From Rhizobiaceae bacterium (GTDB lineage Bacteria; Pseudomonadota; Alphaproteobacteria; Rhizobiales; Rhizobiaceae), in assembly GCA_965248135.1 (NCBI GenBank), contig CBDFIN010000007.1, positions 126,386-190,385 of the forward strand: a DNA stretch of 64,000 nt, given 5' to 3'. Below, piece by piece: positions 3,305-63,955 of the stretch. A program made the translations under genes and the position numbers. The stretch's first letter is position 1; every line of letters begins with the position of its first letter. The notes beneath the pieces were generated by a model. It had not been told where the DNA came from. It made no database searches and saw only the letters and a list, made by a program, of their open reading frames with translations.

Positions 3305-3313
3305 GTGTTTCCC

Positions 3314-5562: not shown

Positions 5563-5661
5563 GCAATCTCCCTGGGAAATTTGCGGGCTGATTGATCCGG
5601 TGAGGTAGAGAGATGAGGCCGCTGTTTGAAATCGGCCTCATCTGGTTATCTAAAAATAATA

Positions 5662-6693: not shown

Positions 6694-6943
6694 AGATTCC
6701 TCCCAGAAATGGTGTCGACAATGTGTATCCAAAATATTTATGTCGACATAATGCCGACAAGTCAATACAGTTTTTATGAGAATTCGATTTTGGTGGATCG
6801 AATCCAACGCTTCGAACCCCTAGGCTTTTTTCATGGATCAACTTATCGAAACATTTGAGTACGTTAGGCTACATCGCAAAAACGCCACGCGGGTTTAAAT
6901 GTCTCGGTCGTTCCACTAGATTGAAAAACACAAGTTTATCGCG

Positions 6944-7720: not shown

Positions 7721-7912
7721 TAACCTTCTCGATTGTGCGTCGTCTGACAAATATCGAGCTTATCGCCAACTAAGTACGGAAGGTGCCAGGCGCCTCACCC
7801 CAATAGTTGATGATGTCGAATGACCCCATAACTGTGAATAGGCATTTAAAATTGACCCGCCTGTTTTGGTAACATCCGCGTTTTAAGCGCGGAGAATGAA
7901 CAGGTGTTATTT

Positions 7913-8056
7913 ATGGAAAGTGCAGTAAAGATTGGTCGCTTGGTTTTGCGAGATGGCCATTCGATCCAGTCGGTCAGTCGAGATACGGGCCTGTCCCGCA
8001 ATACGATCAGGAAGTATCCGAGCGATGCTTCGGGGTATATTTTTTCTGTGTCATAG
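7913..8056 (+). pseudogene. IS21-family IstA transposase N-terminal HTH fragment (47 codons, then stop)
   Basis: My own translation is MESAVKIGRLVLRDGHSIQSVSRDTGLSRNTIRKYPSDASGYIFSVS*. This resembles the IstA HTH (..GxSxRxIAxxxGxSRNTVRKY..), and no catalytic domain follows. Confidence 0.55.
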
Positions 8057-8080
8057 GTTCACCTTTATGAGAGTTTTACT

Positions 8081-8170
8081 CTCCGGCAAACCCGGGGCGG
8101 TTCACTTATTCTTTTCCATAGCTCCAAATTATCCTATCTTTGGAGCCTCCGGCAAACCCGGGGCGGTTCA
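8081..8170. repeat. Two perfect 24-bp direct repeats, CTCCGGCAAACCCGGGGCGGTTCA (8081-8104 and 8147-8170)
   Basis: Read directly from the sequence. The repeats start 66 bp apart, immediately downstream of the IS21 fragment. They may be multi-copy terminal transposase-binding repeats of a deleted IS. Confidence 0.6.
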
Positions 8171-8245
8171 GTTTTGCCAAAGGAATTTCAGGAGGTCAAA
8201 GCCATGACAATTTTCTGTGACATGATATGTCCATTATGAAACTTT

Positions 8246-8274
8246 GAAACAAAATGGCCTGTTCATTTTGTTTC
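8246..8274 (-). terminator. Hairpin downstream of the STAND-TPR gene (weak terminator candidate)
   Basis: GAAACAAAATG (8246-8256) pairs perfectly with CATTTTGTTTC (8264-8274) around a 7-nt loop. The stem is A/T-rich and has no clean U-tract. Confidence 0.3.
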
Positions 8275-8306
8275 AATGCAGAAAGTGCCAATCACGCTTT
8301 AATCTC

Positions 8307-11300
8307 TTACTTTAGCGTCTGCAAATTTGATCGAATTCGCTCTGTCGTTGGATGTTCTTCACCGAGCATCCTCTCGCAGATTTCCAGAGCCTTGCGATAC
8401 AATGGCTCGGCTTCCTGCAGGCGACCTTGAGCATTGAGGTTGGAAGCCACATTGTTGTAGCTTGAGGCGGTATCAGGATGCTCTTCACCGAGCACCTTCT
8501 CCCTGATTTCCAGTGCCTTGCGATACAATGGCTCGGCTTCCTGCAGGCGACCTTGAGCCTTGAGGTTGGAAGCCACATTGTTGTAGCTTGAGGCGGTATC
8601 AGGATGCTCTTCACCGAGCACCTTCTCCCTGATTTCCAGTGCCTTGCGATACAATGGCTCGGCTTCCTGCAGGCGACCTTGAGCATTGAGGTTGGAAGCC
8701 ACATTGTTGTAGCTTGTAGCGGTAGATGGATGCTCTTCACCGAGCACCTTCTCCCTGATTTCCAGAGCCTTGCGAAACAATGGCTCGGCTTCCTGCAGGC
8801 GACCTTGAGCATTGAGGTTGTAAGCCACATTGTTGTAGCTTGTAGCGGTAGATGGATGCTCTTTGCCGAGCACCCTCTCGCAGATTTCCAGAGCCTTGCG
8901 ATACAATGGCTCGGCTTCCTGCAGGCGACCTTGAGCATTGAGGTTGTAAGCCACATTGTTGTAGCTTGAGGCGGTATCAGGATGCTCTTCACCGAGCACC
9001 CTCTCCCTGATTTCCAGAGCCTTGCGAAACAATGGCTCGGTTTCCTGCAGGCGACCTTGAGCATTGAGGTTGGAAGCCACATTGTTGTAGCTTGTAGCGG
9101 TAGATGGATGCTCTTTGCCGAGCACCCTCTCCCTGATTTCCAGTGCCTTGCGAAACAATGGCTCGGCTTCCTGCAGGCGACCTTGAGCATTGAGGTTGTA
9201 AGCCACATTGTTGTAGCTTGAGGCGGTATCAGGATGCTCTTCACCGAGCACCCTCTCCCAGATTTCCAGAGCCTTGCGTAACAATGGCTCGGCTTCCTGC
9301 AGGCGACCTTGAGCATCAAGGTTGGAAGCCACATTGTTGTAGCTTAAGGCGGTATCAGGATGCTCTTCACCGAGCACCCTCTCGCAGATTTCCAGTGCCT
9401 TGCGATACAATGGCTCGGCTTCCTGCAGGCGACCTTGAGCCTTGAGGTTGGAAGCCACATTGTTGTAGCTTGTAGCGGTAGTTGGATGCTCTTCACCGAG
9501 CATCCTCTCGCAGATTTCCAGTGCCTTGCGTAACAATGGCTCGGCTTCCTGCAGGCGACCTTGAGCATTGAGGTTGGAAGCCACATTGTTGTAGCTTGTA
9601 GCGGTATCAGGATGCTCTTCACCGAGCACCTTCTCCCTGATTTCCAGAGCCTTGCGTAACAATGGCTCGGCTTCCTGCAGGCGACCTTGATTATCAAGGT
9701 TGTAAGCCACATTGTTGTAGCTTGAGGCGGTATCAGGATGCTCTTCACCGAGGGTATTTTGCGCCAACTTCAAGGTGCGAGACAAGACCTGTTCGACCAC
9801 GTGATAACGGGCAGCTTGTTGGAAAATAGATGATCTTTCTAACGACCATCCAATGGAGTTTTCAATATCGTATTGTGATCGATGATGATGGGCTTGTATA
9901 AATGAAATCCCGTGGTGTTCAGTAACCGCTTTGACGTTTTCCGGTGTGCATAATGGGTCATAAAAAGAGAAGAGTGCGCTATGAGTTGCCATTGTTCGGC
10001 GAGGGTCGTTTTTTTCAACACGTGCCTGCAGGATATCCCTCATGTGTTGGTGTAGCCGAATATTGTTTGCGTCTATATCTTCTGTAAACGAGTAATTTCT
10101 CAATACCTCAAATGTTAGATCACGTGCCAAAGCAGGGTACTGCTCCCGTAAAAACCAGTCGAGGTCTGCGTTGATACTGTTGGCATGCGCCAATGTCTCA
10201 AGACTGGTTCGATATTGTTCACTCAAGTGATCCATGAAGCGATTAACGACCTCATCAAGCCGTCCTCCATAATCACCAACCTCGGGGATGGCACCATCCG
10301 CCAAGGTGTCGCGATATATATCAAGTTGAAGACCTAGATAGAAGGGAATGCCCTCCGCCCCTTCAATCATCTGCGTGCGAATTTCAGGTTCCTTGACATG
10401 ACAGGCAACAAGAATTTTTTCCATCTCCGCATCTTCCAATGCTTCCAAAGAATATTGATTTATATATTCTCCCCAGGTTCGACGCGGGTTACCTTCATGT
10501 GCCGCCCAATTAATCTTGTCACGCCCGAGCAGAACAAACAGTACCCCTTTGGTATTGAAGATGAGTTCGCGCAACCAATTGTCGGCAGATGCGCCAGTTA
10601 GAGCTTCAAGCGTATCTCCAATGATAATCAGGGGGCGGTCATGTATTCCTTTTTCAGATTTATTAGCCAGATAATGGGAAATATCAGCAGCAAGACACAA
10701 CGGCAGTCGATCAGCAATCAGATTAAACCCAGCTTGATTTAGATCTTCAAGAAGTGCCTCTGCACGCGTCGCCCATTCTTCCTGCCCCCATGCAAAAAAC
10801 TTATTAGCCAAGCGATAGCCCAGACCAATTAGAGGAGTATCTTTGGCGAGGTTATCAATCCCGTCAACGATGTCATTTAACAATTCACTATCAGACTGTG
10901 GTGCTGTAACAACGCGTGAAATGGAAGTGACAATTGAACCACCTGTATCCATCAACCCATATTGCTCTCGAACGTTGCTGGAAGGAGCAATAGCATTGTG
11001 ATATCGGGCAAATGCCATATCAAATATTGGAAAGCCAATATCCTTGGTTGTTGCTCCAAGTTGCAATCTAATTTGTAATAGTGTTTGGACAGGGCTGTCC
11101 TTGGCGTTGGTTAGGTCAACATGTGCACAGCCGTATTTTTGCCCTGCTTCCTGTTTTCTTTCCTTCAAGTGTCTAACAAACCGCCGCGCCAAAGCGGATT
11201 TGCCAATACCGCCAATACCATCAAAAGCCAGCACATGGTGGTGAGTGCTCAACATTGCATTCTCGGTTGCATCTGAAAATATTTTAAGCTGTTTTTGCCG

Positions 11301-11354
11301 CCCTCGGAAAAGTTTAATCTCTGAAGCGGATAAAGGGGTGGATGGATAGCGCAT
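8307..11354 (-). CDS. STAND (NB-ARC-like) P-loop NTPase fused to 11 tandem TPR (TPR_12/KLC-like) units
   Basis: Walker A is FDGIGGIGKSALARRF, about 45 residues from the N-terminus, and Walker B-like is PLIIIGDTLE. The C-terminal half is 11 copies of the 42-aa unit LGEEHPDTASSYNNVAxNLNAQGRLQEAEPLxRKALEIxExV. No separate N-terminal effector domain is visible. Confidence 0.88.
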   Translation of the reverse strand: MRYPSTPLSASEIKLFRGRQKQLKIFSDATENAMLSTHHHVLAFDGIGGIGKSALARRFVRHLKERKQEAGQKYGCAHVDLTNAKDSPVQTLLQIRLQLGATTKDIGFPIFDMAFARYHNAIAPSSNVREQYGLMDTGGSIVTSISRVVTAPQSDSELLNDIVDGIDNLAKDTPLIGLGYRLANKFFAWGQEEWATRAEALLEDLNQAGFNLIADRLPLCLAADISHYLANKSEKGIHDRPLIIIGDTLEALTGASADNWLRELIFNTKGVLFVLLGRDKINWAAHEGNPRRTWGEYINQYSLEALEDAEMEKILVACHVKEPEIRTQMIEGAEGIPFYLGLQLDIYRDTLADGAIPEVGDYGGRLDEVVNRFMDHLSEQYRTSLETLAHANSINADLDWFLREQYPALARDLTFEVLRNYSFTEDIDANNIRLHQHMRDILQARVEKNDPRRTMATHSALFSFYDPLCTPENVKAVTEHHGISFIQAHHHRSQYDIENSIGWSLERSSIFQQAARYHVVEQVLSRTLKLAQNTLGEEHPDTASSYNNVAYNLDNQGRLQEAEPLLRKALEIREKVLGEEHPDTATSYNNVASNLNAQGRLQEAEPLLRKALEICERMLGEEHPTTATSYNNVASNLKAQGRLQEAEPLYRKALEICERVLGEEHPDTALSYNNVASNLDAQGRLQEAEPLLRKALEIWERVLGEEHPDTASSYNNVAYNLNAQGRLQEAEPLFRKALEIRERVLGKEHPSTATSYNNVASNLNAQGRLQETEPLFRKALEIRERVLGEEHPDTASSYNNVAYNLNAQGRLQEAEPLYRKALEICERVLGKEHPSTATSYNNVAYNLNAQGRLQEAEPLFRKALEIREKVLGEEHPSTATSYNNVASNLNAQGRLQEAEPLYRKALEIREKVLGEEHPDTASSYNNVASNLKAQGRLQEAEPLYRKALEIREKVLGEEHPDTASSYNNVASNLNAQGRLQEAEPLYRKALEICERMLGEEHPTTERIRSNLQTLK
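8340..9760. repeat. About 11 tandem copies of a 126-bp coding repeat (the TPR units of the STAND gene)
   Basis: The string CTTGAGGCGG recurs at 8461 and 8587 (126-bp period) and so on. The copies are nearly identical at the nucleotide level, and the repeat boundaries given are approximate. Confidence 0.9.
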
Positions 11355-11790: not shown

Positions 11791-11865
<75 letters not shown>

Positions 11866-11978: not shown

Positions 11979-13139
11979 TTGGGCAAACACACGATTCTGG
12001 GCGGGAAAGTCCATTTATTCCAGCGCGACCGAAGTTCCTATTGGCAGTGCATGGCTTATATTAATGGTAAAAATCACCGCATAAGTTCCAAAGAACGAGG
12101 CCTTTCCAATGCAAAGGATTTTGCCGAAGACTGGTATCTTGAAATGCGAGGGAAACTTCGGCGGGGCGAACTGAGCAACGAAAAACCTTTCAAACAGGCC
12201 GCTCTACAGTTCTTGCGTGAGTATGAAGTAATCACAGAGGGGCAACGAAACGAAAAATACGTCAAGGATCATGAAGCGCGACTGCGAAACCACCTTATTC
12301 CGTATTTTGGTGACATGGGGCTATCTGGAGTAACAGCCGGAGCGGTTCAGGAATATCGAATTGCCCGACTAAAGCCTGACGATGAATTCAAACCACCTTC
12401 TCGCAGCACCATGCATCACGAGATTGTAACTTTGCGGCAAGTTCTGAAAACAGCCATCCGCCACGGTTGGCTTGAGCACTTGCCAGACCTTTCGATGCCC
12501 TACAAAACATCAGCCAAGGTGAGCCATCGCGCATGGTTCTCACCTGATGAATACAAACAGCTGTACGAAGCCACCCGCCGCAGGGCCAAAGAGGCGCAGA
12601 ACAAGCCCTGGAAATGGGCAGCAGAGCAGTTACACGACTATGTGCTGTTCATGGCCAATACAGGAATCAGGCCTGACGAGGCCAATAACCTGGAATACCG
12701 TGATGTCGAGATTATCCATGACGAGGCCACAGATGAAACCATTCTGGAGATTGAAGTTCGGGGTAAGCGTGGCGTTGGTTACTGCAAAAGCACAAGGGGG
12801 GCTGTACGCCCTTTTGAGCGGCTCGCGAAACGTAACAACCCCAACCCTACCGACCGGGTCTTTCCAGCCAACCACAAGAAGCAGTTTAACCGTATCCTAA
12901 ATACGGAAGGGTTGAAATTTGATCGTGACGAAAATAGGCGCACCGCCTACAGCTTGCGTCACACCTATATATGCCTGCGATTACTGGAAGGGGCTGACAT
13001 TTATCAGATCGCCAAGAATTGCCGAACAAGTGTCGAGATGATTGAAAAATATTATGCATCTCACATTAAGTCGAACCTTGATGCCGCTGCAATCAATGTT
13101 CGCAAACCGCGTAATAGAATTAACAAAAACACAGTTTGA
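11979..13139 (+). CDS. Tyrosine recombinase / phage-type integrase adjacent to tRNA-Phe
   Basis: The C-terminal catalytic region is LRHTYICLRLLEGADIYQIAKNCRTSVEMIEKYY (HxxR ... Y). It lies 113 nt downstream of the tRNA. The start is a TTG in the ORF track, so the exact start is uncertain. Confidence 0.88.
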   Translation: MGKHTILGGKVHLFQRDRSSYWQCMAYINGKNHRISSKERGLSNAKDFAEDWYLEMRGKLRRGELSNEKPFKQAALQFLREYEVITEGQRNEKYVKDHEARLRNHLIPYFGDMGLSGVTAGAVQEYRIARLKPDDEFKPPSRSTMHHEIVTLRQVLKTAIRHGWLEHLPDLSMPYKTSAKVSHRAWFSPDEYKQLYEATRRRAKEAQNKPWKWAAEQLHDYVLFMANTGIRPDEANNLEYRDVEIIHDEATDETILEIEVRGKRGVGYCKSTRGAVRPFERLAKRNNPNPTDRVFPANHKKQFNRILNTEGLKFDRDENRRTAYSLRHTYICLRLLEGADIYQIAKNCRTSVEMIEKYYASHIKSNLDAAAINVRKPRNRINKNTV

Positions 13140-45550: not shown

Positions 45551-45892
45551 AGCTCCGCCGCATCATCCCGATCATGATCAAATTCTTGCTCCTGATTACC
45601 ATATAAGTCGCCCATTTGTACAGAATGGAGCTGCTCGCTTGCCGCTTCCAACTCCTGTCGCTGCCCATAAAGTTCATGGTATTTCACGCGATCTGTTAAC
45701 GCGCAGCCGACTTCCTGCAATGGTTTGCCGAACCATCCCTCTTCCACCACTCGTGCGCGAACATCGTCCACCGCTGCAGCCAGAGCATTGGGCCTTATTT
45801 CTCCCCAGTGCTTTTGTAATCGATTTTTTTGATTCTAATTCTGCGCGCAGTTTGCGTTGCTCACTCGATATACGATATTGTTCGTTCGCCAT
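45547..45892 (-). pseudogene. Small gene split between two frames at an A7/T7 homopolymer
   Basis: MANEQYRISSEQRKLRAELESKK (from the ATG at 45892) runs into the T7 run at 45824-45830. The next frame continues ..RLQKHWGEIRPNALAAAVDDVRARVVEEGWFGKPLQ... to the stop at 45547. Confidence 0.45.
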
Positions 45893-46423
45893 GTTATAGT
45901 CCTCGAAATTCCGGTGGCGCTATCGCTAGAAAAGGTCAAATAGCTGCAATGACACTCATTGATTCCATACTTAGCCGATTGTCCGGCATTGATACAGCCT
46001 CCAAGTCGTCTCAACCACCTTCACCAACCACTGATGACGACATATTGCCACCAGCACCCGTTGTTTCATCACCGGCACTTCTTTCCATACCACAGCCGGT
46101 TGCCATAAGATCCCGTGCCAAAAAGGTAAGGCAATCGACTTATTTGTCCGATAGAAAAGCACCTTTGTTGAGACTGTCAAAACACGATTATTGGACAGTT
46201 GAAGATGCCGTGTGCGGCACCCATATTTTTGGTGGGAATGGATCTGGAAAAACCACGGGATCCGGACAAACCATTGCCAAGGCGTTTCTGAGAGCAGGTT
46301 TTGGAGGACTGGTTCTTTGCGCCAAGCCCGATGAATTGGTGAACTGGCAAAATTATGCAAAGGCGTGCGGGCGCTCCCAACATTTGATAGTCTTGGCTGA
46401 GGATGAACCGTGGCGTTTTAATT

Positions 46424-47639
46424 CCCCGGTTCAACTCCGAAACGCAACATTTGTTTGCTGATGGAATATGATTTTTGTTTGCGGATTTGGTGGGCGGGGT
46501 CAAGGGCATTGTCGCGTAGCGATGCGCAGCACCCTTGAGGCCGACCGGAAAATCCGCAAAACTCGTCAAACCATTCCATTATGCCTTTGATTATTTAGCC
46601 AGATGGCTGCAATCCTTGTATGGGACACCACATCTCACGGAGGATATTATGCCCAAAGGACATCACCATCTGGCCTATGATCAAAGATGCCAGATTTACA
46701 CACTTTTGCAAACCGGTCTCTGCCGCGCCCAAATTGCCCGCCAGATTGGCGTTGAGCGTTCGACTATCACCCGAGAGTTGCAGCGCAACAAGGGCAAATG
46801 TGGTTATCGCTTTAAACAAGCGCATGACAAGGCGTGTGAGCGGCGCAAAAAGGCCTCTTGTGTGCCGCGTAAAATGACCGTTGAGCGCGTCGAACTCATT
46901 GAAAGCCTGCTGACGAAATGGCAGTGGAGCCCCGATCAGATCAGCGGCTGGCTGGCTCGAAACGGGCTCTTCGTCTCACACGAGTGGATTTACCGCCACA
47001 TCTGGGCGGACAAAAAAAAGGGTGGCAAATTATGGACTTGCCTGCGCCATCGCGGCAAAAAATACAATCGACGCGGCACGAAAACAGCCGGTCGCGGCCT
47101 CATTCCAGGGCGGGTTGACATTGAGGAACGTCCCGAAATCGTCGAAACCAAAAGCCGTGTTGGCGACTGGGAGGGCGATACTATCATCGGCAAAAACCAC
47201 AAGGGTGCCATTCTTTCTCATGTCGATCGAAAATCAAAATACACCAAGCTGGTTCTGTTGCGCGACAAATCAAAGGACAGCGTGCAAAAGGCCTGCGGCA
47301 AGACGCTTTCAAAGCTCAAAGCGTTCATCAAAACCATCACGTATGACAATGGCAAAGAATTCGCCGGGCACAAAAAGATCGCCAAAATATTGCAATGCGA
47401 CATCTATTTCGCCAAGCCCTATCACTCATGGCAGCGCGGCCTCAACGAACATACCAACGGTCTTGTTCGCCAATACTTCCCAAAGGGTACCGATTTCACT
47501 AAGCTGACAAAAGCCGAAGTTCAGATCGTCGAAGACAAGCTGAACCAACGTCCAAGAAAATGTCTCGAATACAAAACCCCATATGAGGCCTTTTCAAAGG
47601 AATGTGAGCAAAATGTTGCATTTCAATGTTGAAGGGGCG
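46424..47639 (+). mobile_element. IS30-family insertion sequence, copy B (1216 bp)
   Basis: It is the same length and has the same ends as copy A. I saw one difference (C at 14573 versus T at 46617). It is flanked by a 3-bp direct repeat ATT (46421-46423 and 47640-47642). Confidence 0.9.
46649..47632 (+). CDS. IS30-family DDE transposase (copy B)
   Basis: The protein is identical to the copy A transposase from MPKGHHHL onward, according to the ORF track. Confidence 0.9.
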   Translation: MPKGHHHLAYDQRCQIYTLLQTGLCRAQIARQIGVERSTITRELQRNKGKCGYRFKQAHDKACERRKKASCVPRKMTVERVELIESLLTKWQWSPDQISGWLARNGLFVSHEWIYRHIWADKKKGGKLWTCLRHRGKKYNRRGTKTAGRGLIPGRVDIEERPEIVETKSRVGDWEGDTIIGKNHKGAILSHVDRKSKYTKLVLLRDKSKDSVQKACGKTLSKLKAFIKTITYDNGKEFAGHKKIAKILQCDIYFAKPYHSWQRGLNEHTNGLVRQYFPKGTDFTKLTKAEVQIVEDKLNQRPRKCLEYKTPYEAFSKECEQNVAFQC

Positions 47640-48897
47640 ATTTTATTCAGTATGAGTTGAACCGACCAGGTGATCCAGCCAGCCGGGTTGATAATCTGGT
47701 CACCGTTTTGATGAACCTGCTTGAGCAGACCGGCAGACAAAGCGGTGGTGACGATCGCATCTGGCAACAGGCAGCTGAGCAGTTATTGCGCAATGTGTTG
47801 ATGATATTGGTAACAGCGCGCAAAGAATTCAGTCTTCTCGATATTCAAAAATTCATCGATGCCATTCCACAAACCGTACAGGAAACCAAAACATCAAGCT
47901 GGAAAAATACCGACACGGCTAAATATCTGATTGACGCGAAGGCTGCATATGAGAATGCGAATCGCATCGCAGATTATGAAGCAATCCACCATTACCTCAC
48001 AGTGCAATTTCCGTCACTTGCAGCCCGAACACGGTCTTCCGTGACATTTACTTTGTCGGCTACTTTGCAGGATTTATTGGTTGGTGCCACCCGAGAATTA
48101 TTGACCACGGGGTGTAATTTTTTTCCGGAGGACACCCATGAAGGAGCCATCATTATATTGGCGATGCCAGCAGCAATCAAACGCTCTTATGCAACCGCGC
48201 AAACACTGTTCAAGGTCGTCTGGCAAATGGCCGCACTCAGGCGCATGGAGCATGTCAATGAACAAACACGACCAATCTTCTTATGGATAGACGAAAGTCA
48301 CCTCTTTGCATCCGATTTTGACACAACATTTCAAAGTTTGGCTCGCACTTCAAGAACGTGTTCTTGCTGGCTAACACAATCCCTGAGCAGTTACGTCCAC
48401 CGTCTTGGAGGCAAAAACCCTGAACACACGACACGCGCTTTAATGTCATTCTTCCAGACCCATCTGTTTCATGCTCAGGCGGATCCGGCAACAGTCGATC
48501 ACGCGCAAAAATTATTTGGTAAAGGAGAAATCACACGGTTCAATCAGCAACGATCATCGGTGCAAGGCACCAACTGGTCGCATTCCAGTGGTGGCCAAAC
48601 GACCTACAGCGGACACAGTAATTCAGATGGTAGCTGGGGTTCAGCGAGTGGTGGGGGTTCGAATTGGTCTGACGGCGAAGGAGGAAATCAATCAGATACA
48701 GTCGGTCATTCCACTACTACCACAATGGAAGAAATATTGCAGGCGTCTGATTTTGCCGGATTAGCAACCGGAACCGATCAGGTTGATCAATCACGCAAAC
48801 ATTTACGCGGCATCTCGCAAGCCTGGGTGTTTCGCACCGGAAGGCCATGGGCGGATGGCAATATGCATTTACTTGCACAATTTGACCGTCGGTTGCC

Positions 48898-49635
48898 ATG
48901 AAATCACGTAGGCCACGGATTCTCCCACGTATCGTGTACTTCGTGCTGTTGTCTTTTTCCGCACCATTATGGTTGTTGTTGCGATCTTGGTATGGCCCAC
49001 GGCTTTATTTCATACTTTTGATTGCCTCCTTGACGCATCCATTCGCCTTGCTTTGGTTTTCGATGCTGTTAGATACATTGGATTTTGAGGATACTGCGAA
49101 ACAGCTTGAGCATTGGTTAGATTGGTCTACTTCTATAATAATCCTGGGGTTTGGAATTCAACTCGTAATTATTGTCTTGCAAATTACGGCGATTACAATT
49201 TCTCGCATGTGGCGATCTCATCCCGCGTTTGCGGGATCGTTTTTGCTTTGGCCGGCATCACGCCGAACCTTTCCATTCGATTTCATCGGTTTGGTGGCGC
49301 TTGCCTACATATTGCCATTAGGTGTTCCACTGCCACCAATGACTATTCTGGACATCGCGGTAGCTCTGCCACCGCATCAGATTGATGATGCAGCCATCTT
49401 CATTGCCACCATCTATGGTTTGCTTGTCATTGATATCACTTTTAACAACGGCAGACTGCGGTTTTTCGATTCAGGTGAAGAGCCAAAATCACATCCGAGA
49501 ATCAAACCCAAGCCTGCAAATAAATTCCAAACGCGTATCAGCAAAACGGCAAAGCCTTCAGCCGAAACACTTGGCGAAATATTTTCCCGCCGTGACAAGG
49601 CATTGAAAGACATCAACCAATCGGTTGACCGATAG
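48898..49635 (+). CDS. Hypothetical polytopic membrane protein, translationally coupled (ATGA) to the coupling-protein gene
   Basis: It has several hydrophobic segments, for example IVYFVLLSFSAPLWLLL, YFILLIASLTHPFALLWFSMLL and IIILGFGIQLVIIVLQITAITI. Confidence 0.6.
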   Translation: MKSRRPRILPRIVYFVLLSFSAPLWLLLRSWYGPRLYFILLIASLTHPFALLWFSMLLDTLDFEDTAKQLEHWLDWSTSIIILGFGIQLVIIVLQITAITISRMWRSHPAFAGSFLLWPASRRTFPFDFIGLVALAYILPLGVPLPPMTILDIAVALPPHQIDDAAIFIATIYGLLVIDITFNNGRLRFFDSGEEPKSHPRIKPKPANKFQTRISKTAKPSAETLGEIFSRRDKALKDINQSVDR

Positions 49636-49829: not shown

Positions 49830-51026
49830 GTGACAATTTCCCAAGAGCAATTGTCTATTCTTCGCGACCGAATGGAAGAAAAATTGGGATGCGCCACATT
49901 TCGATCCTATCTTTCGGATGCTAATTTTGTAGCGGATGTCGCCTGCACCAATGTACAATTGATAGTTTCATCAAAATTCAGGGCCGATCGACTTAACGAA
50001 CACCACAAGTTCGATATCCAGAATGTCATTTCACAGGTGTTCGGGAAATCGATCAGTCTGGAGATTGAGGCAAATTCACACTGCGGGCAGCCAGAAACCC
50101 AACAGCTATTCGAGGCCGATGAGCAATATAATATGTTTGTCCCAACCATCTCGGAAGTATCGATAAAAGATGACGTGCATCTTATGGGAATTGCACCATT
50201 CACTCTCCAACCGCGCGGCGACACCCGTACCAGGCTTTGTTACAGAAATATTGACGGCATGGACATCGATATTAAAGCGCACCCGGATTATGGGCTTCCC
50301 ACCCCGATGGACTTTAACATCGTTCTAATGATGGAGAGCCATTTGGCGGCGAGTGCCAATCACTACCGAAGAGCGCTGAACTACTATCAAACCATGAAAA
50401 AAACTGGTCGAACTATCGAGAAACCTAACCCGCCACCAAGGGTGTTTCGCCCCACAGTTAAAGAGATCATGGAATTCACACGCGATCACGACACCAAACT
50501 TGGTAAACGATATGGAGGTAAACAGGCATCTGTCCTTGAGCTAAGGCTGGATAGACTTAAGAACACCAATGCTAAAATTCGCCAAACCGGAAATCGCCGA
50601 AAACGCGTTGGAACATTTAGTTATATTGGCGATTGGCGCGTGGTTTCGGAAACAGAAACAGGCAATATAGAGCAGGTAGAAATTGAGTATCCTGACTGGA
50701 TTTATGCCGGGATTGTTGAGGCTGTCAGGCCTACTATTCTTACATATGACGATGATTATGAACTGCTAAAACAGCCAATTATGATGTTTCTTTACCGGGT
50801 CTTGCGTTCCAAAGTGACCGATAATCATAAAGAATTTTATTTGGAGGATCTGCATCGTCGTAGCGGATCACGTCAACCCCTGAAAGAATTTAACCGAACA
50901 CTTATAGAACGCGTTGATGAGACGGAGAAACAAGGATTCTTTGATTGGAGTTTATCAATCCAAGGCAATGCGAGGCAACGCAAATTGGTGGTCACAACAA
51001 GGGTACCAGCCTCTGAAGAGCCATAA
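49830..51026 (+). CDS. Replication initiator protein A-like (RepA/RPA family)
   Basis: DYGLPTPMDFNIVLMMESHLA resembles the conserved G(L/I)xTxxDxDILIxLxS box of the RPA family as I remember it. The gene is immediately followed by an iteron array. The start is GTG. Confidence 0.55.
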   Translation: MTISQEQLSILRDRMEEKLGCATFRSYLSDANFVADVACTNVQLIVSSKFRADRLNEHHKFDIQNVISQVFGKSISLEIEANSHCGQPETQQLFEADEQYNMFVPTISEVSIKDDVHLMGIAPFTLQPRGDTRTRLCYRNIDGMDIDIKAHPDYGLPTPMDFNIVLMMESHLAASANHYRRALNYYQTMKKTGRTIEKPNPPPRVFRPTVKEIMEFTRDHDTKLGKRYGGKQASVLELRLDRLKNTNAKIRQTGNRRKRVGTFSYIGDWRVVSETETGNIEQVEIEYPDWIYAGIVEAVRPTILTYDDDYELLKQPIMMFLYRVLRSKVTDNHKEFYLEDLHRRSGSRQPLKEFNRTLIERVDETEKQGFFDWSLSIQGNARQRKLVVTTRVPASEEP

Positions 51027-51062
51027 CAAGGGCAGGTCGTATCAGTTGTCAGCATTTTCTGT

Positions 51063-51418
51063 TCGTACTATGCCCCACTATGGGACAATCTCCTCAACTC
51101 GAAACAAATAAAATCTCGTACCATGCCCCACCATCAAACAGAATTTAGCCAGATGCTGACTATTATTGCAGTTTTGGTGGTCTCAACTTGACTTTCATAA
51201 GTGTCGGCAAACCTGTTGATTTCTCGTACCTTACCCCACCATTTACCGGACTATGCTACACCAAACACGTACCATGCCCCACCATCACTCGTACCGTGCC
51301 CCACTATCGTTCGTACCATGCACACCGCACTTTTGTTCTTATTCAATATGTTAGATCACCCCCTTTTTCTTATTCCTATATCTTCTTTCACCAACCGTCA
51401 CGTACTGCGTCCCACCAT
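51063..51418 (+). promoter_or_regulatory. Seven direct 19-bp iterons (consensus TCGTACCATGCCCCACCAT), a candidate replication origin
   Basis: The copies are at 51063, 51116, 51224, 51267, 51289, 51311 (degenerate) and 51400. The three central copies are spaced exactly 22 bp apart. An A/T-rich stretch of about 60 bp (51330-51390) separates copies 6 and 7. Confidence 0.7.
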
Positions 51419-51869: not shown

Positions 51870-52420
51870 CTAACATGCTGCAATTATTGATGTATGTCGT
51901 GTTTTACGCACTTTATTACTGTCGATGGCGGTATATTGGAACCGGCGGATATTCTGACCTCTTTTGCCTTTGAATGTCAGAAACTTAACATCCATTTGAA
52001 TCTGGTGACCAGGAACTTGTTTGTTGTAGCGCTTGGTGTGTATTTTCCGCATTCGGGTGCCGCGAGAGAGACGGTTCAGACCATTGCGCCTGAGGATTCG
52101 ATAGACTGTGGCATCTGATAAATTGAGGCCATGATATCTCGCCATATACCACACGATCCTCATTGGGCCGAGATGGTATTTGCGGCGAAGAGGTTGAACC
52201 CTTCCTCAATTACAGGGTCCGTTCTATTTGCGTGCCGCTTTGTAATTGGTTTGGCATTAATCAACCCGGCTTCACCATGCTTTTGATAAGCTTCTCGCCA
52301 TCTGTAGAAGCTGGATCTGCCGACCCCAAAATACCGACAGGTTTTGGCGACATGACCAATCTTTTCAGCATATAGAAGAATGCTTAGTTTGCGATGAATT
52401 TCGCGTTGATCCTTGTTCAT
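51870..52420 (-). pseudogene. IS481-like (rve DDE) transposase remnant, frameshifted and 3'-truncated
   Basis: The HTH part is CRYFGVGRSSFYRWREAYQKHGEAGL (52160-52420). The next frame has IVWYMARYHGLNLSDATVYRILRRNGLNRL...VPGHQIQMDVKFL...FQYTAID. Similarity is then lost, and the remaining DDE residues are missing. Confidence 0.65.
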
Positions 52421-52641: not shown

Positions 52642-54582
52642 TTGGGTTTTAAAGGGTTCATTGTGAATACAGCAATACGCGGCGATTTACCGGGATGGCT
52701 CCTGGATCGAATTGATTCCACATCTGACGAAGAGGTGCGCGAAGAAATTGAGATTAAATTCATTCTTCCGAAAAATAACTGCCTCACCGCAGTGAAAAAA
52801 AACAACCCCAGAATACAGAATATTGAACAGATCTATATTGATATAAATGTATTAAAAGAGACCGCAGTAAATATATTGCCGGACAACTGCGATACTTATA
52901 CCGAATGGCGTGTCAGGCGAAATAATGACGAGTATTTTGTGACCGGAAAATCTGAAACCGCTACAAGTATCACTCGCAATGAATTTCAAAGGCCAATCAG
53001 CACAGAAATGTATAATTCCATAATAAAAACAACAGGTAAGAACAAGAATACAAAATCGGTCAAGAAAATCAGGCAATCTTTCGAATTGACCGTTGGAAAA
53101 GAAACGATTTTGGTTGAGGTCGATAATTTCAAAGAGGTGGCAGGGAATCCCGTGAATCTGGATTTCGTTTATTGCGAGTTGGAACTGAAAAGCAAACCAC
53201 TGGCAAGATCAATTCAAAGTGGGCTGGTCAGCATTGGGGCATTGGAAACATTTGTTGTCGGCTTGGAGGTCACCAGATTTAGAGAATTTAAAAATGCTTG
53301 GCTTGCTGAATACGGATTTCCGGCAGAGACATTTCATAAAGTAAATGCATGGGTGCAAAACGCTTGTACTCGCGAATTTCAACAAATGATATGTAAAGCA
53401 GACCCCAAGGAAATAGGGCATGTTATGTTGACACTAGAGCAACGTAATCAAATTGGGAAATCAGAACTCAAATCCAGCGCAAGTGCTAAACCGCCGCTCG
53501 CGGAATTGCGTTTTGACGTGGGAGATACTTATGGCCGGTCGGCACGAGTTCCCGAGAAATTCAATATTGCCGACAATCACGGCTATGGCTGGTTGCGTGA
53601 CTTTCAAAAAATTGTTTCTTCAGATCCATTTCTCAGACTATTTTCCAAACCGCAAATATTTAGACCAGGGCTGGGAAACAATACCACCACGACCAGAGGA
53701 CAGCACACGCTGGATGTAATATCAAGCGCACAAAATATTGCCAATCAAACCGGGTTAAACGATCACCTCGCTGCGGCAATAGCCGCATTGCACGATTTGG
53801 GGCATCCCGCCGGAGGGCACAAGGGCGAAGAATTCCTGTCAAAATTGAGCAGGCAGTCTGGCGATGGAACATCCATCTTGTTTAAACACCACATTTATTC
53901 TCTTTCACTGGCAGAAATATTTGATTTTAACCTGCAGAGAGAAGTGCAAATTGGCGCGTTTTATCACAAGTCCGGTGGCAAAAAACTCACTGCTCCCGCC
54001 AATTGTCCCCAAGAGTTTGGTGTTGTCAGAATTGCCGACAAAATTTCCTATGTACCTTGGGATATTCACGATTCGATCAAGAATAATTTCTTGAAAAAGG
54101 GTGATGTTCCCCAATGGATTTATGATGAATTGGGCTCTGAGCCACCCGATTGGATTATTACAATGATCGACGCAATTGTTGATGAAAGTCAGCAGGAGTT
54201 TAGTGTAACATTCTCTGAAAAATCGGGAAAGGTTTTTAAAGCCTACGAGGCTGCAAGGAAAATTGTGTATGATAATGTGCACAGTAAAATATTTTGGCAA
54301 ACTCTTGAGGTTCAATACGAGTTATCTTTTCAGATACTTAAAAATTCATTCCCCGATATCGATCCGATTCCGATTCTGGCTTATATGACTGACTCTGAAA
54401 TTGAACAGATCGCAAAACATGCAGAAGCCAATCCAATTGGCACAAGTATTGACTTGGAATACTTAAAGGATACAGGAATGGGAGTGGTTGAGATATTGGA
54501 GCATTTAGCGAAAATCAAGGAAGCGGGGGAGTGGGACCAGAAGGTATTTTTCCATCATATGGAACGCCACCGCCTAAAGTAA
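52642..54582 (+). CDS. CYTH-like domain fused to a dGTPase-like (Dgt/SAMHD1-type) HD phosphohydrolase domain
   Basis: The N-terminal CYTH signature ExExK is in EEIEIKFILP, with WRVRR and a late strand LDFVYCELELKS. The C-terminal HD domain has RGQHTLDV...IAALHDLGHPAGGHKGEEFL and VVRIADKISYVPWDIHDSIK (compare the dGTPase boxes HDIGHxPFGHxGE and ADDIxYxxHDxxD). The start is either TTG 52642 or GTG 52663. Confidence 0.72.
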   Translation: MGFKGFIVNTAIRGDLPGWLLDRIDSTSDEEVREEIEIKFILPKNNCLTAVKKNNPRIQNIEQIYIDINVLKETAVNILPDNCDTYTEWRVRRNNDEYFVTGKSETATSITRNEFQRPISTEMYNSIIKTTGKNKNTKSVKKIRQSFELTVGKETILVEVDNFKEVAGNPVNLDFVYCELELKSKPLARSIQSGLVSIGALETFVVGLEVTRFREFKNAWLAEYGFPAETFHKVNAWVQNACTREFQQMICKADPKEIGHVMLTLEQRNQIGKSELKSSASAKPPLAELRFDVGDTYGRSARVPEKFNIADNHGYGWLRDFQKIVSSDPFLRLFSKPQIFRPGLGNNTTTTRGQHTLDVISSAQNIANQTGLNDHLAAAIAALHDLGHPAGGHKGEEFLSKLSRQSGDGTSILFKHHIYSLSLAEIFDFNLQREVQIGAFYHKSGGKKLTAPANCPQEFGVVRIADKISYVPWDIHDSIKNNFLKKGDVPQWIYDELGSEPPDWIITMIDAIVDESQQEFSVTFSEKSGKVFKAYEAARKIVYDNVHSKIFWQTLEVQYELSFQILKNSFPDIDPIPILAYMTDSEIEQIAKHAEANPIGTSIDLEYLKDTGMGVVEILEHLAKIKEAGEWDQKVFFHHMERHRLK

Positions 54583-61204: not shown

Positions 61205-63955
61205 ATGCCTGATTTAATGAGAATCAGCATATTTAGCAGCATTTTTACTGGAAATCGGTTGTTTAACCTGTTTGCGTTTCTTTCATTTGCCGCCGCATTT
61301 TCCCTACGCATTGGCAGGGATATTGCCCTGTTTACTTCTCTGTTTGCGTACGGAATTTGGGAGCAAGAGTTAGGTCTGAAAGGGGGGGCTGCCATATTGG
61401 GCATCAGTTTTGTCATCAACGCATTTCTGATGACCTGGTTCGCCGGAAAATTCGAAAGTTGGATTGAGACAACAGCACCCGAAACCATATCGACTTTTCT
61501 GCTTGTTCTCGTTGCTGTTGCAGCACTCCTGTTCGGCGTTTCGCTTGATCTTGTTGCCGGATGGGGCCGGTTACCATGGCTTGCGCTTGCTATTTTTGTT
61601 CTGTCGGAAATTGCCATATTTTTGTTCATGAATATGATCTGGATATTTGCAGGACCAAGATTTACAGAGGTTGCCCAGCGCTCGGTTTTTCCAAAAATAT
61701 CCGGCTGGGGATATATCGGCATACTGCTTCCCGTTCTGCTGGGAGGCATGGAACTCGTGTTGTTAGAAATCGCCAATGCTTCCCATCTATTCTATTTTTC
61801 CGCACTGTTAACATTGCTGGCAATCCTGCTGTTGCCGCTCATCAAATCATACCCTTTGATCTCAGAGAATGATGATGAATTTTCAATAGCGCAATCTCCC
61901 GACAACGATGATGAAAGTTTGAGTCTGGGCGATAATTTGGCTTGGGCCTGGCGTAACAGGTACTTGCGATTGTTCATTCTTACCACGATTATGAATTTCA
62001 GTCTGCTGGCGATATTTGATCAGGCGCTTGCAAGTTCTGCATCTGCCATGAAAATAAATTCAAAGGACCTGTTATTTTACCTCATCGGCGCCACCGGGCT
62101 TTTTGCGACAATTGCAGCTATTGTTCAATTTACAGGATTTAGGAGGTGGTTGGACAGATTTGGCGCAGAGAAATTAAATCTGGGCGCACCTTCATCTATG
62201 ATTATCGGGGCGCTAATTTCGGCGGTCGGTTTGACCGGTTGGTTGACTGGAAATTTGCCGCCAATGGAACGAATTTTGTGGTTCGCTGTGACCGCGAGGG
62301 TTTTTGGCTGGATCGCCGAGTTTTTGTTCAACCAGTCCTTGTTGCCCTATATTTACGGCGCCTTGCCATCTGACGTGGAAAATCGCGGTCGGCTGGTTGT
62401 TGAAGGCCCTATAACGGCAATAACCAATGGGGCAATCGGGGCGCTACTCTTGCTTTATGTCTGGATTTTTGATGGCAAAGCAACAAGCTCGGATGGAAGT
62501 GCCGTCATGATGTTTGATTTTATGGCGCTGCTGGCAATCGTGTTTGCAATCATCATGTTTATTTGGTCAATCTATATGATAGGTGAATATAAACAGGTTC
62601 TGCTTGAAAGGTTGACCTCCGGCGAGGTGATTTCTGGGCTGGACAAGCGATCCATGCAGCTTATCAACAGCTTGCGCCGCACAGCCGAGACAATTGGCAG
62701 ACCAACAGTCCCGAATAAATTTCAATCGAAAATTTTGTCGGATTTGTTGAAAGAGAACCTTGATGACCCGGGTCTATCGGCAACATTTGTCACTGAGCTC
62801 CATAGTCTGTCAACACCAACCGAAAACGAACTGGAAGAAATCTGTATCATTGCCACCCGCTTGGGGGTTTTGGAAAGGCTCGGCGAACCCCTGACCCGAT
62901 GGCTGGAGAATACAACAGAAGAGAATTTTGTCAGTATTGCCCAGATACTGGTTCCCTCGGGGTTTGACGGGGGAATTATTATTCATGAATCTTTGTTGAA
63001 CCGTCAGGCAAGTTCCGGATTAAAGCTGAGTCGTGCAAAATTGCTCGAGTGTTCTGCATTATTGGGCAGCGAGAAATGGGGCAAAGCCGCTATTGATGGT
63101 TTTTGGGAAGAAAAAGATTACCCCGATATTATCAGTTCAATTACCAATCCGGCGCGCTTGTCAGCTCTAAAATTCTCGGAGCCCGCCCTGCAGTTTGACC
63201 TGTTTTTGATTGGTCTTGCCCGTCTTTCATCCGAGCGTAGCGCAATGATTGAAGCATGTTCAAAAATGGCAACCGAAAATATCTGGTTGAGAGAATTTCT
63301 GCTTCGCTTGCTGTTTGTCCCTGCTGAACATGTCCCGTCAATGTTCAAAACCGCCCGACTTATGTCTCCATTAGTGTTGGCAAAAATTCACAGTCAAAAG
63401 ACAGCTGGCAAGATTGATTATGCCTCAAAAAATGCGACTATTGTTGAAAATCGAGAGAAAGCACGACCAACAGAAAAAGGTCGCCCGAACGAAATCCAAA
63501 AATTTATCACCACAATAAGCAAATTGGAGGATGTAGATGATTTTCGGGGCGAAGGTGCATACAGTATATTGATATCTAATGATAAATTGGCAGCCGACCC
63601 GGTTTTATTCGCGAACGCACTCAGCATGTTGTGTGACCAGCAGGCAAAACAGCAAATATCAGCAATTGACTTTAACACTGGATTGGACCGTTGGCGTAGC
63701 GAAGCCGCAAAACCTCAATCGAACATCGGGAAAAAATACCTAACCAGAGCCAGAATATATTTGGAAGGGCTGAAAAACCACGAGGCATTTCGCGACCTTC
63801 CGGACGTTCCGGAGCTTGCCGTGCAACTGTATTCGGGCGGAAGCCAGGCTGACCGGATTCAGGCACGTCTTGAGCAATTGATGTCCCGCATTGAAGCAAC
63901 CGTTCTCACCCAGGATATCAGAGAACTAGCGAACAGAATTTCCACAACTGCGTAA
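61205..63955 (+). CDS. Polytopic membrane protein (about 12 hydrophobic segments, 6+6) fused to a soluble helical C-terminal domain of about 450 aa
   Basis: The hydrophobic segments occupy about residues 15-460, with an acidic central loop SENDDEFSIAQSPDNDDESLSLGDN. The general look is MFS/nucleotide-transporter-like (weak). The C-terminal half is helical-repeat-like. Confidence 0.65.
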   Translation: MPDLMRISIFSSIFTGNRLFNLFAFLSFAAAFSLRIGRDIALFTSLFAYGIWEQELGLKGGAAILGISFVINAFLMTWFAGKFESWIETTAPETISTFLLVLVAVAALLFGVSLDLVAGWGRLPWLALAIFVLSEIAIFLFMNMIWIFAGPRFTEVAQRSVFPKISGWGYIGILLPVLLGGMELVLLEIANASHLFYFSALLTLLAILLLPLIKSYPLISENDDEFSIAQSPDNDDESLSLGDNLAWAWRNRYLRLFILTTIMNFSLLAIFDQALASSASAMKINSKDLLFYLIGATGLFATIAAIVQFTGFRRWLDRFGAEKLNLGAPSSMIIGALISAVGLTGWLTGNLPPMERILWFAVTARVFGWIAEFLFNQSLLPYIYGALPSDVENRGRLVVEGPITAITNGAIGALLLLYVWIFDGKATSSDGSAVMMFDFMALLAIVFAIIMFIWSIYMIGEYKQVLLERLTSGEVISGLDKRSMQLINSLRRTAETIGRPTVPNKFQSKILSDLLKENLDDPGLSATFVTELHSLSTPTENELEEICIIATRLGVLERLGEPLTRWLENTTEENFVSIAQILVPSGFDGGIIIHESLLNRQASSGLKLSRAKLLECSALLGSEKWGKAAIDGFWEEKDYPDIISSITNPARLSALKFSEPALQFDLFLIGLARLSSERSAMIEACSKMATENIWLREFLLRLLFVPAEHVPSMFKTARLMSPLVLAKIHSQKTAGKIDYASKNATIVENREKARPTEKGRPNEIQKFITTISKLEDVDDFRGEGAYSILISNDKLAADPVLFANALSMLCDQQAKQQISAIDFNTGLDRWRSEAAKPQSNIGKKYLTRARIYLEGLKNHEAFRDLPDVPELAVQLYSGGSQADRIQARLEQLMSRIEATVLTQDIRELANRISTTA

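Follow-up and report, generated by a model that had tools for sequence, protein, structure and literature searches.

A CYTH-HD fusion protein with predicted tripolyphosphatase and dGTPase-type domains in a rare, conserved multi-gene neighbourhood of a Rhizobiaceae bacterium

The CYTH-HD gene and its product

We analysed a stretch of 64,000 nucleotides (nt), hereafter the window, from contig CBDFIN010000007.1 of a Rhizobiaceae bacterium (assembly GCA_965248135.1, positions 126,386 to 190,385), which holds a gene for a protein joining an N-terminal CYTH domain to a C-terminal HD domain. This CYTH-HD gene lies in an operon with genes for two ParA/MinD-like ATPases, a helical protein and a membrane protein, and is the constant member of a conserved multi-gene nucleotide system that is very rare and has not been described before. 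The open reading frame (ORF) spans positions 52642 to 54582 of the forward strand and encodes 646 amino acids (aa) when counted from its first TTG at 52642. The GTG at 52663, with an 'aaaggg' Shine-Dalgarno-like motif 5' of it, is the more likely start, and the resulting 639-aa product is identical to database protein P0001. All residue numbers below refer to this 639-aa version, and the positions of domains, motifs and neighbouring genes are collected in Table 1. A scan for promoters and terminators gave nothing above the shuffled expectation.

The AlphaFold2 model of the protein, built with 20 family sequences, had a mean predicted local distance difference test score (pLDDT) of 85.3 and a predicted template modelling score (pTM) of 0.81, and showed a barrel at the N-terminus that is connected through a helical linker to a C-terminal domain made up of helices only. 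A homologue search recovered 22 relatives, of which approximately 20 were full length with the same two-domain layout (E values from 1e-115 to 3e-198). Many database matches of 200 to 320 aa resemble separate CYTH proteins, as would be expected if two neighbouring genes had been read through or wrongly joined in the assembly. However, short matches such as P0024, P0026 and P0027 extend into the conserved linker and then end, suggesting genes cut at contig ends, while the approximately 20 full-length proteins (625 to 668 aa), which stem from various samples and hosts, all have this architecture without interruption and with a conserved linker, and the pTM of the model speaks for a confident two-domain fold. 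An artefact is thus practically ruled out by the architecture conserved across the relatives.

The HD half is of the dGTPase type

The C-terminal half matched the Pfam HD family with 35.4 bits (cut-off 22), and its best NCBIfam match was the dGTP triphosphohydrolase model NF002327 (130 bits, E = 9e-38, residues 317 to 549). The PADLOC dGTPase model also matched (E = 1.8e-21). Among the sequences of the Protein Data Bank (PDB), the deoxynucleoside triphosphate (dNTP) triphosphohydrolase TT1383 of Thermus (2dqb) was found with an E value of 3e-14 using the single sequence and 2.9e-23 using the family profile, and all other matches to this half, bar one weak hypothetical protein, were dGTPases or dNTPases, including CloA and Escherichia coli Dgt. 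Foldseek likewise returned 2dqb (E = 2e-10, target TM-score 0.61) together with E. coli Dgt, the L. blandensis dGTPase and CloA. We then counted conserved residues in an alignment of 20 full-length relatives sharing 35 to 51% identity, to which all conservation figures below refer. The metal ligands H348, H377-D378 and D459 are invariant (20/20) and align with their counterparts in TT1383, both members of the HE dyad (H386 and E389 in GGHKGE) are invariant, and H381, K460, Y463, D467 and D470 are also invariant or nearly so. The HD motif and the HE dyad are needed for dNTP hydrolysis according to the paper that describes the Clover system. As judged from these matches and residues, the HD half is specifically dGTPase-type. 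Its scores are far below the equivalog cut-offs, with 130 bits against the 393 required by NF002327 and 49 against the 400 of the anti-phage dGTPase model NF041026, indicating that it belongs to a divergent branch and is not an orthologue of the named enzymes.

The CYTH half resembles specific tripolyphosphatases

The N-terminal half exceeded the curated cut-off of the Pfam CYTH family (PF01928; 33.6 against 23.2 bits). The only PDB sequence relative of the CYTH profile was NeuTTM (NE1496; 2fbl/3typ; E = 9e-7), and the AlphaFold2 model placed an eight-stranded barrel here, with strands between residues 26 and 175 and high pLDDT, which Foldseek matched to YgiF bound to tripolyphosphate (5a60, E = 6e-7). 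The conserved residues comprise E28/E30/K32 (the ExExK motif, kept in 19 of the 20 members), E81-x-R83-x-R85, K96, R105/E107, K135/R137, D154 and E172/E174 (the late ExE, kept in 18); R83, R85, K96, R105, K135 and R137 are invariant. In YgiF, both ExExK glutamates and the second glutamate of ExE bind metal 2, the first glutamate of ExE holds the complex of metal and inorganic triphosphate (PPPi), and mutation of these residues abolishes tripolyphosphatase (PPPase) activity (Martinez et al., 2015). With the catalytic residues invariant or nearly so in the 20 relatives, both active sites of the fusion look functional and under purifying selection.

The CYTH superfamily contains several enzyme types, for which Vogt et al. 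(2021) gave sequence marks. Class IV adenylyl cyclases are recognized by an HFxxxxExExK extension, which serves base stacking, by the change of the first arginine of x-R-x-R to a small residue, and by the change of the second glutamate of ExE to alanine, whereas thiamine triphosphatases carry W/Y-x-R-x-R, with an aromatic residue two positions ahead of the first arginine. None of the 20 CYTH-HD members has the HFxxxxExExK motif, both arginines are kept in the register E-x-R-x-R as in the ELRLR of NeuTTM, and E174 is replaced in two members only, by lysine and serine and not by alanine. The class IV adenylyl cyclase type (CyaB/AC-IV) was therefore rejected, as all three published marks fail in 20/20 or 18/20 members. 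Thiamine triphosphatase was rejected as well, since the invariant E81 occupies the aromatic position and W82 is one residue out of register. By the three published discriminators, the sequence of the CYTH domain is that of a triphosphatase of the triphosphate tunnel metalloenzyme (TTM) type and not that of a cyclase.

An earlier note on this DNA had read a CYTH domain from the ExExK motif and a late acidic strand, and a dGTPase-type HD domain from its characteristic boxes. Both assignments are borne out here: the quoted motifs are all present, both halves gave significant profile matches and corresponding fold matches, and the catalytic ligands, whose substitution would have told against the idea, are not substituted. 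The suggestion in the same note that the protein might generate a nucleotide signal is disfavoured, at least for a cyclase, by the missing HF motif and the retained arginines and ExE.

Table 1. Positions of the features discussed in the text, counted from the first letter of the window
Feature	Position	Strand	Basis or remark
CYTH-HD fusion gene	52663-54582	+	approximately 20 full-length homologues with the same architecture
CYTH / triphosphate-tunnel domain, residues ~24-220	52732-53322	+	Pfam, model strands, Foldseek, NeuTTM match, motif conservation
EIEIK (ExExK)	52744-52758	+	translation of the CYTH half
E-W-R-V-R	52903-52917	+	translation of the CYTH half
ELE within YCELELK	53176-53184	+	translation
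Helical linker, residues ~221-299	53323-53559	+	alignment and model; low confidence at residues 259-274
dGTPase-type HD dNTP triphosphohydrolase domain, residues ~300-639	53560-54579	+	Pfam, NCBIfam, PDB, Foldseek, invariant residues
TTRGQHTLDV	53689-53718	+	H348 codon at 53704
HD pair H377-D378	53791-53796	+
GHPAGGHKGE	53800-53829	+	H386...E389 at 53818-53829
DKISYVPWDIHD	54037-54072	+	D459-K460-x-x-Y463-x-x-x-D467-x-x-D470 box
ATPase-A, 1066 aa	54686-57886	+	N-terminal ParA/MinD-like domain with variant P-loop KGGGGRTT, ~750-aa remainder; NCBIfam, Pfam, PADLOC
ATPase-B, 713 aa	57951-60092	+	ParA/MinD-like, P-loop KGGVGRTS; NCBIfam, PDC-M28B, motif conservation
Helical protein, 329 aa	60089-61078	+	start overlaps ATPase-B stop by 4 nt; weak TPR hints only
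Membrane protein, 916 aa, MFS/TLC (nucleotide-transporter-like) type	61205-63955	+	hydropathy, orthologues, low-confidence model
tRNA-Phe	11791-11865	+
Integrase-like ORF	11979-13139		Phage_integrase 25 bits, just under cut-off
Mrr_cat restriction-endonuclease domain fused to nSTAND3 (155 bits), 769 aa	24016-26325	-	same element
Type IV coupling protein, N-terminal fragment	45829-46461		with Walker A
IS30-like transposase	46535-47632		appears to split the coupling protein gene
Type IV coupling protein, C-terminal fragment	47657-48901		TrwB_AAD_bind
Replication initiator A gene	49830-51026
Five iteron-like 25-nt direct repeats	51059-51309		core CTCGTACCATGCCCCACCAT
Transposase helix-turn-helix fragments (86 aa, 97 aa)	51870-52420	-	directly upstream of CYTH-HD

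Rarity and distribution

To determine how widespread the family is, we searched a profile of the CYTH domain plus linker exhaustively against 1.84 billion cluster representatives. The number of matches fell from 481 at E ≤ 1e-3 to 43 at E ≤ 1e-10 and to 22 at E ≤ 1e-30; in this last group ten proteins were full length (625 to 661 aa), and most others were of 180 to 490 aa and fragment-like. The next tier included stand-alone CYTH proteins of approximately 200 to 250 aa and of eukaryote-like uridine-kinase/UPRTase-CYTH proteins. To the latter belong P0043, P0045 and P0062, which are long, match CYTH at the C-terminus and had at first been suspected of being transporter fusions. A single CYTH-HD locus was present among 185,579 species-representative genomes and six in the metagenome collection, and no relative was found among 2.9 million viral contigs. 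Similarly, tblastn against 50,697 phage and 72,556 plasmid records yielded no full-length match, the HD half alone matching ordinary dGTPases, and megablast of the 13-kb operon region against the 72,556 plasmids found no match. The CYTH-HD family is extremely rare.

A conserved neighbourhood around the gene

Thirteen distinct related loci were fetched, and 12 loci, including the window, were informative, i.e., had enough flanking sequence for their ORFs to be compared with the operon proteins of the window. The ATPase pair recurs in 9 of these 12 loci, with one additional locus carrying an A-like gene only, and the TLC-like membrane protein family is also present in nine. A large protein adjoining CYTH-HD, which we call the X-family, was found in six loci and an accessory CYTH protein in five. 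In three loci a TIR protein lies between ATPase-B and the membrane protein, and in three a trio of genes for an NMT1-type binding protein, a permease and an ATP-binding cassette (ABC) ATPase lies directly 3' of CYTH-HD. The GC content of the loci ranges from 28 to 65%, indicating wide horizontal scatter.

Both ATPases belong with what NCBIfam names the 'KGGVGR-motif variant AAA ATPase' (AAA_KGGVGR), ATPase-B with 106.6 bits against a cut-off of 90 and ATPase-A with 65.9 bits. ATPase-A also matched Pfam AAA_31/CbiA/ParA, and its orthologues come after CYTH-HD in nine loci, including the window. The lysine-to-arginine variant of the P-loop is universal in the pair, reading KGGVGRTS in 9/9 ATPase-B and K[GS]G[GSA]GR[TS] in 9/9 ATPase-A orthologues. 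When the five operon proteins of the window were scanned against PADLOC, only PDC-M28B-like matches were obtained, by both ATPases (71.5 bits for ATPase-B), and PDC-M28A found no match. Membership in PDC-M28 was thus rejected, as the A component was not found. Our literature search returned nothing relevant on KGGVGR ATPases or PDC-M28. The 329-aa helical protein corresponds to the C-terminal part of ATPase-B in other loci.

According to its hydropathy profile, the 916-aa membrane protein has approximately 12 transmembrane helices (residues 1 to 460) followed by a helical cytoplasmic domain of approximately 450 aa. It resembles the major facilitator superfamily (MFS) and TLC types. The protein itself gave no Pfam match, and its model had a pLDDT of only 56, with AtNTT1 and NupG as non-significant best matches by TM-score; its orthologues L005_1303 and L013_1280 matched Pfam TLC with 35.4 and 36.5 bits (cut-off 21). 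A homologue search with this protein returned three matches, and those with known context sit in CYTH-HD loci. Hence, the system looks dedicated rather than a generic scaffold with swappable effectors.

Other genes, some of them of the conflict type, were seen in single loci or small groups of them. The NMT1-like/permease/ABC ATPase trio after CYTH-HD is at L003:11946-15013, L011:2286-5367 and L012:2555-3187, and the C-terminal extension of its ABC ATPase recurs in L005:9023-9934 and at the C-termini of X-family proteins. In L005 a 1059-aa HTH-NACHT-FGE-sulfatase protein (5838-9017) flanks CYTH-HD, and near CYTH-HD in L016 an 864-aa Roc/Ras-type GTPase (3072-5666, minus strand) adjoins a CN_hydrolase protein.

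Accessory CYTH domains in partner proteins

Partner proteins of approximately 340 aa combine a barrel resembling the cyclic nucleotide (cNMP)-binding domain with a C-terminal CYTH domain. This module is free-standing at L005:19240-20271, L013:11328-12338, L007:3211-4272 and L016:7833-8897 (the last two on the minus strand), and it also forms the C-terminus of the TLC-like transporters L005:15314-19225 and L013:7470-11312. A CYTH-like domain is also present inside X-family proteins. Where the gene order is the same, as it is in three loci, the accessory gene follows immediately 3' of the transporter, a place that in our case falls past the window end; no accessory CYTH domain was detectable within the 64-kb window.

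The accessory CYTH domain aligned with that of CYTH-HD over 153 columns (hhalign probability 98.4%, E = 6e-15). The glutamates of ExExK are replaced in the accessory domains, which read T.E.R, V.G.R, Q.Q.K, K.Q.R or E.Q.R at this place, while E-x-R-x-R, K, K-x-R, D, ExE/ExD and the C-terminal tail ('FKNAWLAEYGF' in CYTH-HD) are kept. Together with the role of the corresponding residues at metal 2 of YgiF, this loss suggests that the accessory domains would bind a triphosphate without hydrolysing it. Judging from its residues, the barrel-CYTH module is probably a non-catalytic triphosphate-binding sensor. As for the barrels, Pfam cNMP_binding scored 41.5 bits in L005 (cut-off 27.5) and 27.1 in L013, just under the cut-off, and in our reading of the alignment the canonical phosphate-binding arginine is missing in five of the six.

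Mobile-element setting

To the left of the operon, the window contains a tRNA-Phe gene followed by an integrase-like ORF; this pair probably represents the left-hand junction of a mobile element that has integrated here and carries everything rightward, including the CYTH-HD operon. A TrwC relaxase gene lies to the right of the integrase-like gene. Further on, the gene of a type IV coupling protein appears to be split by an insertion sequence (IS), an IS30-like transposase. The element is probably no longer able to transfer by conjugation. The replication initiator A gene and the iteron-like direct repeats just downstream of it form a probable plasmid-type origin, and when the initiator (RPA) protein was compared with plasmids, its matches had at most 39% identity and were mostly alphaproteobacterial. 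The position directly upstream of CYTH-HD, occupied by an X-family gene in L001, L008, L009 and L015, holds transposase fragments in the window, where the X-family gene is missing; IS activity may have removed it. The Rfam scan of the window returned tRNA only. Taken together, the tRNA, integrase, relaxase and replication genes around the operon indicate that it is the cargo of a mobile element, which also carries defence-like genes such as the Mrr_cat-nSTAND3 fusion, a STAND protein of the defence type (nSTAND3, novel STAND NTPase 3). Just left of the tRNA-Phe gene, positions 8307 to 11354 of the minus strand encode a 1015-aa protein made almost entirely of TPR_12/TPR_10 repeats (661 bits).

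Proposed mechanism and alternative explanations

Release of PPPi by dGTPases is credited to Kornberg (1958), as cited, and is also given in a 2026 survey of dGTPase fusions and in the Clover paper. NeuTTM and YgiF are specific PPPases without a known physiological source of PPPi, whose very existence in cells has been questioned (Kohn et al.). We propose that the C-terminal HD domain would cleave (deoxy)nucleoside triphosphates to (deoxy)nucleoside and PPPi, and that the N-terminal CYTH domain, a putative two-metal tunnel phosphatase like NeuTTM and YgiF, would then cleave PPPi to pyrophosphate (PPi) and phosphate (Pi). Removal of PPPi would eliminate a strongly metal-chelating product and make nucleotide destruction irreversible. 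PPPi chelates divalent cations very strongly, with a Kd for Ca2+ of approximately 1e-7 M (Kohn et al.), and thus might interfere with the metal-dependent HD site; a fused PPPase would suit a burst of dNTP destruction. Within a multi-gene system that is rare and scattered horizontally, CYTH-HD would be the enzyme that is always present and probably acts as the effector. The paired KGGxGR ParA/MinD-like proteins of this system, with their long helical or TPR-like tails, are a likely NTP-dependent switch or sensor pair, and a wider response centred on nucleotides is suggested by the transporter, the TIR protein and the degenerate CYTH proteins. The most likely role would be to deplete nucleotides as part of a conflict or defence function that resides on a mobile element, in line with the effector function considered in the earlier note, which fits both the conserved neighbourhood and the mobile-element setting. 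The functional reading should shift from a signal generator towards a dNTPase plus tripolyphosphatase effector. We give about even chances to this proposal as a whole, in which one polypeptide runs the full course from dNTP through PPPi to PPi and Pi and serves as an effector.

Several observations weigh against this proposal. Pyrophosphatase already gives cells abundant PPPase activity, so that a dedicated fused PPPase is not obviously needed, and the non-catalytic CYTH domains of the partners may mean that a triphosphate ligand is sensed and not merely cleared. The substrate of the HD domain could differ from dGTP or dNTPs, given how far its score lies below the equivalog cut-off, and Pfam HD_assoc (PF13286) had no match in the protein or its full-length relatives, although the structural alignment with 2dqb covers approximately 390 columns. 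The defence role is suggested by gene context; no PADLOC system matched apart from the PDC-M28B-like ATPases, two locus types are without the ATPase pair, and an ABC importer adjoins the gene in three loci, so that a metabolic role would also fit.

Such a role could be that of a nutritional or salvage module, for example in symbionts, with the TLC-like or ABC transporter importing nucleotides or phosphorylated compounds and the fusion stripping them to nucleoside and Pi, so that the cell would gain phosphorus or nucleosides. The transporter is indeed the most constant partner (TLC-like in nine loci; NMT1-type substrate-binding protein, permease and ABC ATPase in three), the TLC family includes known nucleotide transporters according to its Pfam description and the AtNTT1 match, and a symbiont of ciliates, Candidatus Kentrum, is the source of one member. 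However, a salvage pathway would not be expected to show extreme rarity, scattered GC content, location on a mobile element, TIR proteins or paired sensor-like KGGxGR/TPR proteins, dNTPs as dGTPase-type substrates are unlikely to be available outside cells, and the transporter assignment of the window's own protein is weak; we therefore consider salvage unlikely. A cyclase reading, in which a CyaB-like CYTH domain would make a cNMP that is read by the cNMP-binding-like partners and degraded or balanced by the HD domain, could draw on the membership of class IV adenylyl cyclases in CYTH, on the recurrence of such partners (above the Pfam cut-off in L005, with modules related by similarity in five loci) and on there being no other recognizable cyclase in the loci. 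It is very unlikely in view of the three failed marks, of the PPPases NeuTTM and YgiF as nearest solved relatives and of an HD domain that is dGTPase-type and not of the cyclic-nucleotide phosphodiesterase type, and it is further weakened by the barrels without the canonical arginine.

It is possible, though not likely, that the triphosphate is itself a message: PPPi, or else a nucleotide that carries a triphosphate like the p3diT of Clover, would be sensed by the non-catalytic CYTH domains of partners and transporters, and the catalytic CYTH domain would erase the signal or gate the HD domain. The accessory domains are close kin of the CYTH domain in CYTH-HD and retain the basic tunnel residues and ExE/ExD, while the ExExK glutamates, without which metal site 2 and with it catalysis would be lost, are replaced; the module at the C-terminal end of the TLC-like transporters of L005 and L013 and the CYTH-like domain of the X-family point the same way. 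CloA, a dNTPase effector under the triphosphorylated nucleotide signal p3diT, offers a precedent. On the other hand, a signal synthase (nucleotidyltransferase, NTase) was not seen in any locus, the operon of the window has no accessory CYTH domain inside the sequenced 64 kb, and PPPi would make an unlikely signal given the high constitutive PPPase activity of cells (Kohn et al.). The narrower version, in which PPPi is a genuine messenger written by the HD domain, erased by the fused CYTH domain and read by the non-catalytic CYTH domains of partners and transporters, appears distinctly unlikely; if true, it would be the first PPPi-based signalling or immune pathway and the first physiological rationale for specific TTM tripolyphosphatases.

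Known systems and recurrence of the fusion

CYTH-HD shares with dGTPases (TT1383, 2dqb; E. coli Dgt; the L. blandensis enzyme; anti-phage dGTPases) the HD fold, the H...HD...D ligands, the HE dyad and the DK..Y...D box. Its C-terminal 340 aa find their best sequence and structure matches there, but with scores far below the orthologue cut-offs, and it differs in the added N-terminal CYTH domain and helical linker, in lacking an HD_assoc match and in lying in a five-gene operon instead of standing alone. The likeness to NeuTTM and YgiF extends over the complete two-metal tunnel (ExExK, E-x-R-x-R, K, K-x-R, ExE) and the C-terminal 'N..LA' tail; NeuTTM, however, is a stand-alone protein of 150 aa and YgiF a CYTH-CHAD protein, whereas the partner domain in CYTH-HD is, by analogy, a dNTPase of the PPPi-producing type. 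As in Clover, which consists of the CloA dNTPase and the CloB nucleotidyltransferase, a dGTPase-type effector is tied to a second triphosphate-handling activity. In CYTH-HD, this second activity would come from a fused TTM hydrolase rather than from a signal synthase, the gene neighbourhoods bear no resemblance to each other, and the neighbours that were scanned, both in the window and in the related loci, contained no NTase domain; membership in Clover was rejected for want of an adjacent CloB gene. The MinD/ParA-like NTP-dependent conflict systems of Kaur et al. (2020) have in common with the present one variant, possibly inactive P-loop proteins, TPR-like regions and TIR partners, but that paper mentions neither CYTH nor dGTPase. 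CYTH-HD would be of the dNTP-depleting HD effector kind with a TTM enzyme as an added module, in a multi-gene context not described before. An antiviral effector role of dNTP-depleting enzymes is established for both bacteria and humans, and the new effector design proposed here would also destroy the reaction product. The surrounding genes define a very rare, undescribed nucleotide-centred system with a KGGxGR pair, a TLC-like transporter, degenerate CYTH domains as putative readers and sometimes a TIR protein.

The earlier note did not recognize the fusion as a known architecture, a view that holds in part. The 2026 survey lists TIR, NLR, CARD, death, SIR2 and SAM domains as partners of dGTPases and never mentions CYTH, and in our literature search on CYTH, dNTPase and SAMHD1 the term CYTH was absent among the top matches listed. 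In a network of 38,246 CYTH sequences, multi-domain architectures occurred only in 3 of 10 major clusters, with CHAD and phosphoribulokinase as the named partners (Vogt et al., 2021). However, a generic 'CYTH fused to HD hydrolase' had already been listed by Iyer and Aravind (2002) according to Vogt et al. (2021), so that it would be too strong to call CYTH plus HD unheard of.

By their domain sequences, CYTH and HD have been joined at least three times, twice with an HD domain of the dGTPase type. Besides CYTH-HD, the 710-aa protein P0128 joins a non-dGTPase HD domain to a complete CYTH domain, in the order opposite to CYTH-HD and in an unrelated context. The 567-aa protein P0164 (L014:1025-2728), like CYTH-HD, carries a dGTPase-type HD and a NeuTTM-like CYTH domain in one polypeptide, but in reverse order: HD and HD_assoc come first, followed by a complete CYTH domain with the motifs EIERK, ECRVRR, VEVEF and KRYKNQYLA. 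Such recurrent, independent fusion argues for a functional coupling and against accident, and the conserved fusion together with the independent reverse one could serve as a 'Rosetta stone' for the purpose of specific tripolyphosphatases such as NeuTTM and YgiF. P0164 matches NCBIfam dGTPase models, is a singleton in the database and lies in an unrelated context, adjoining an ABC-F ATPase. Its JGI label is 'adenylate cyclase'.

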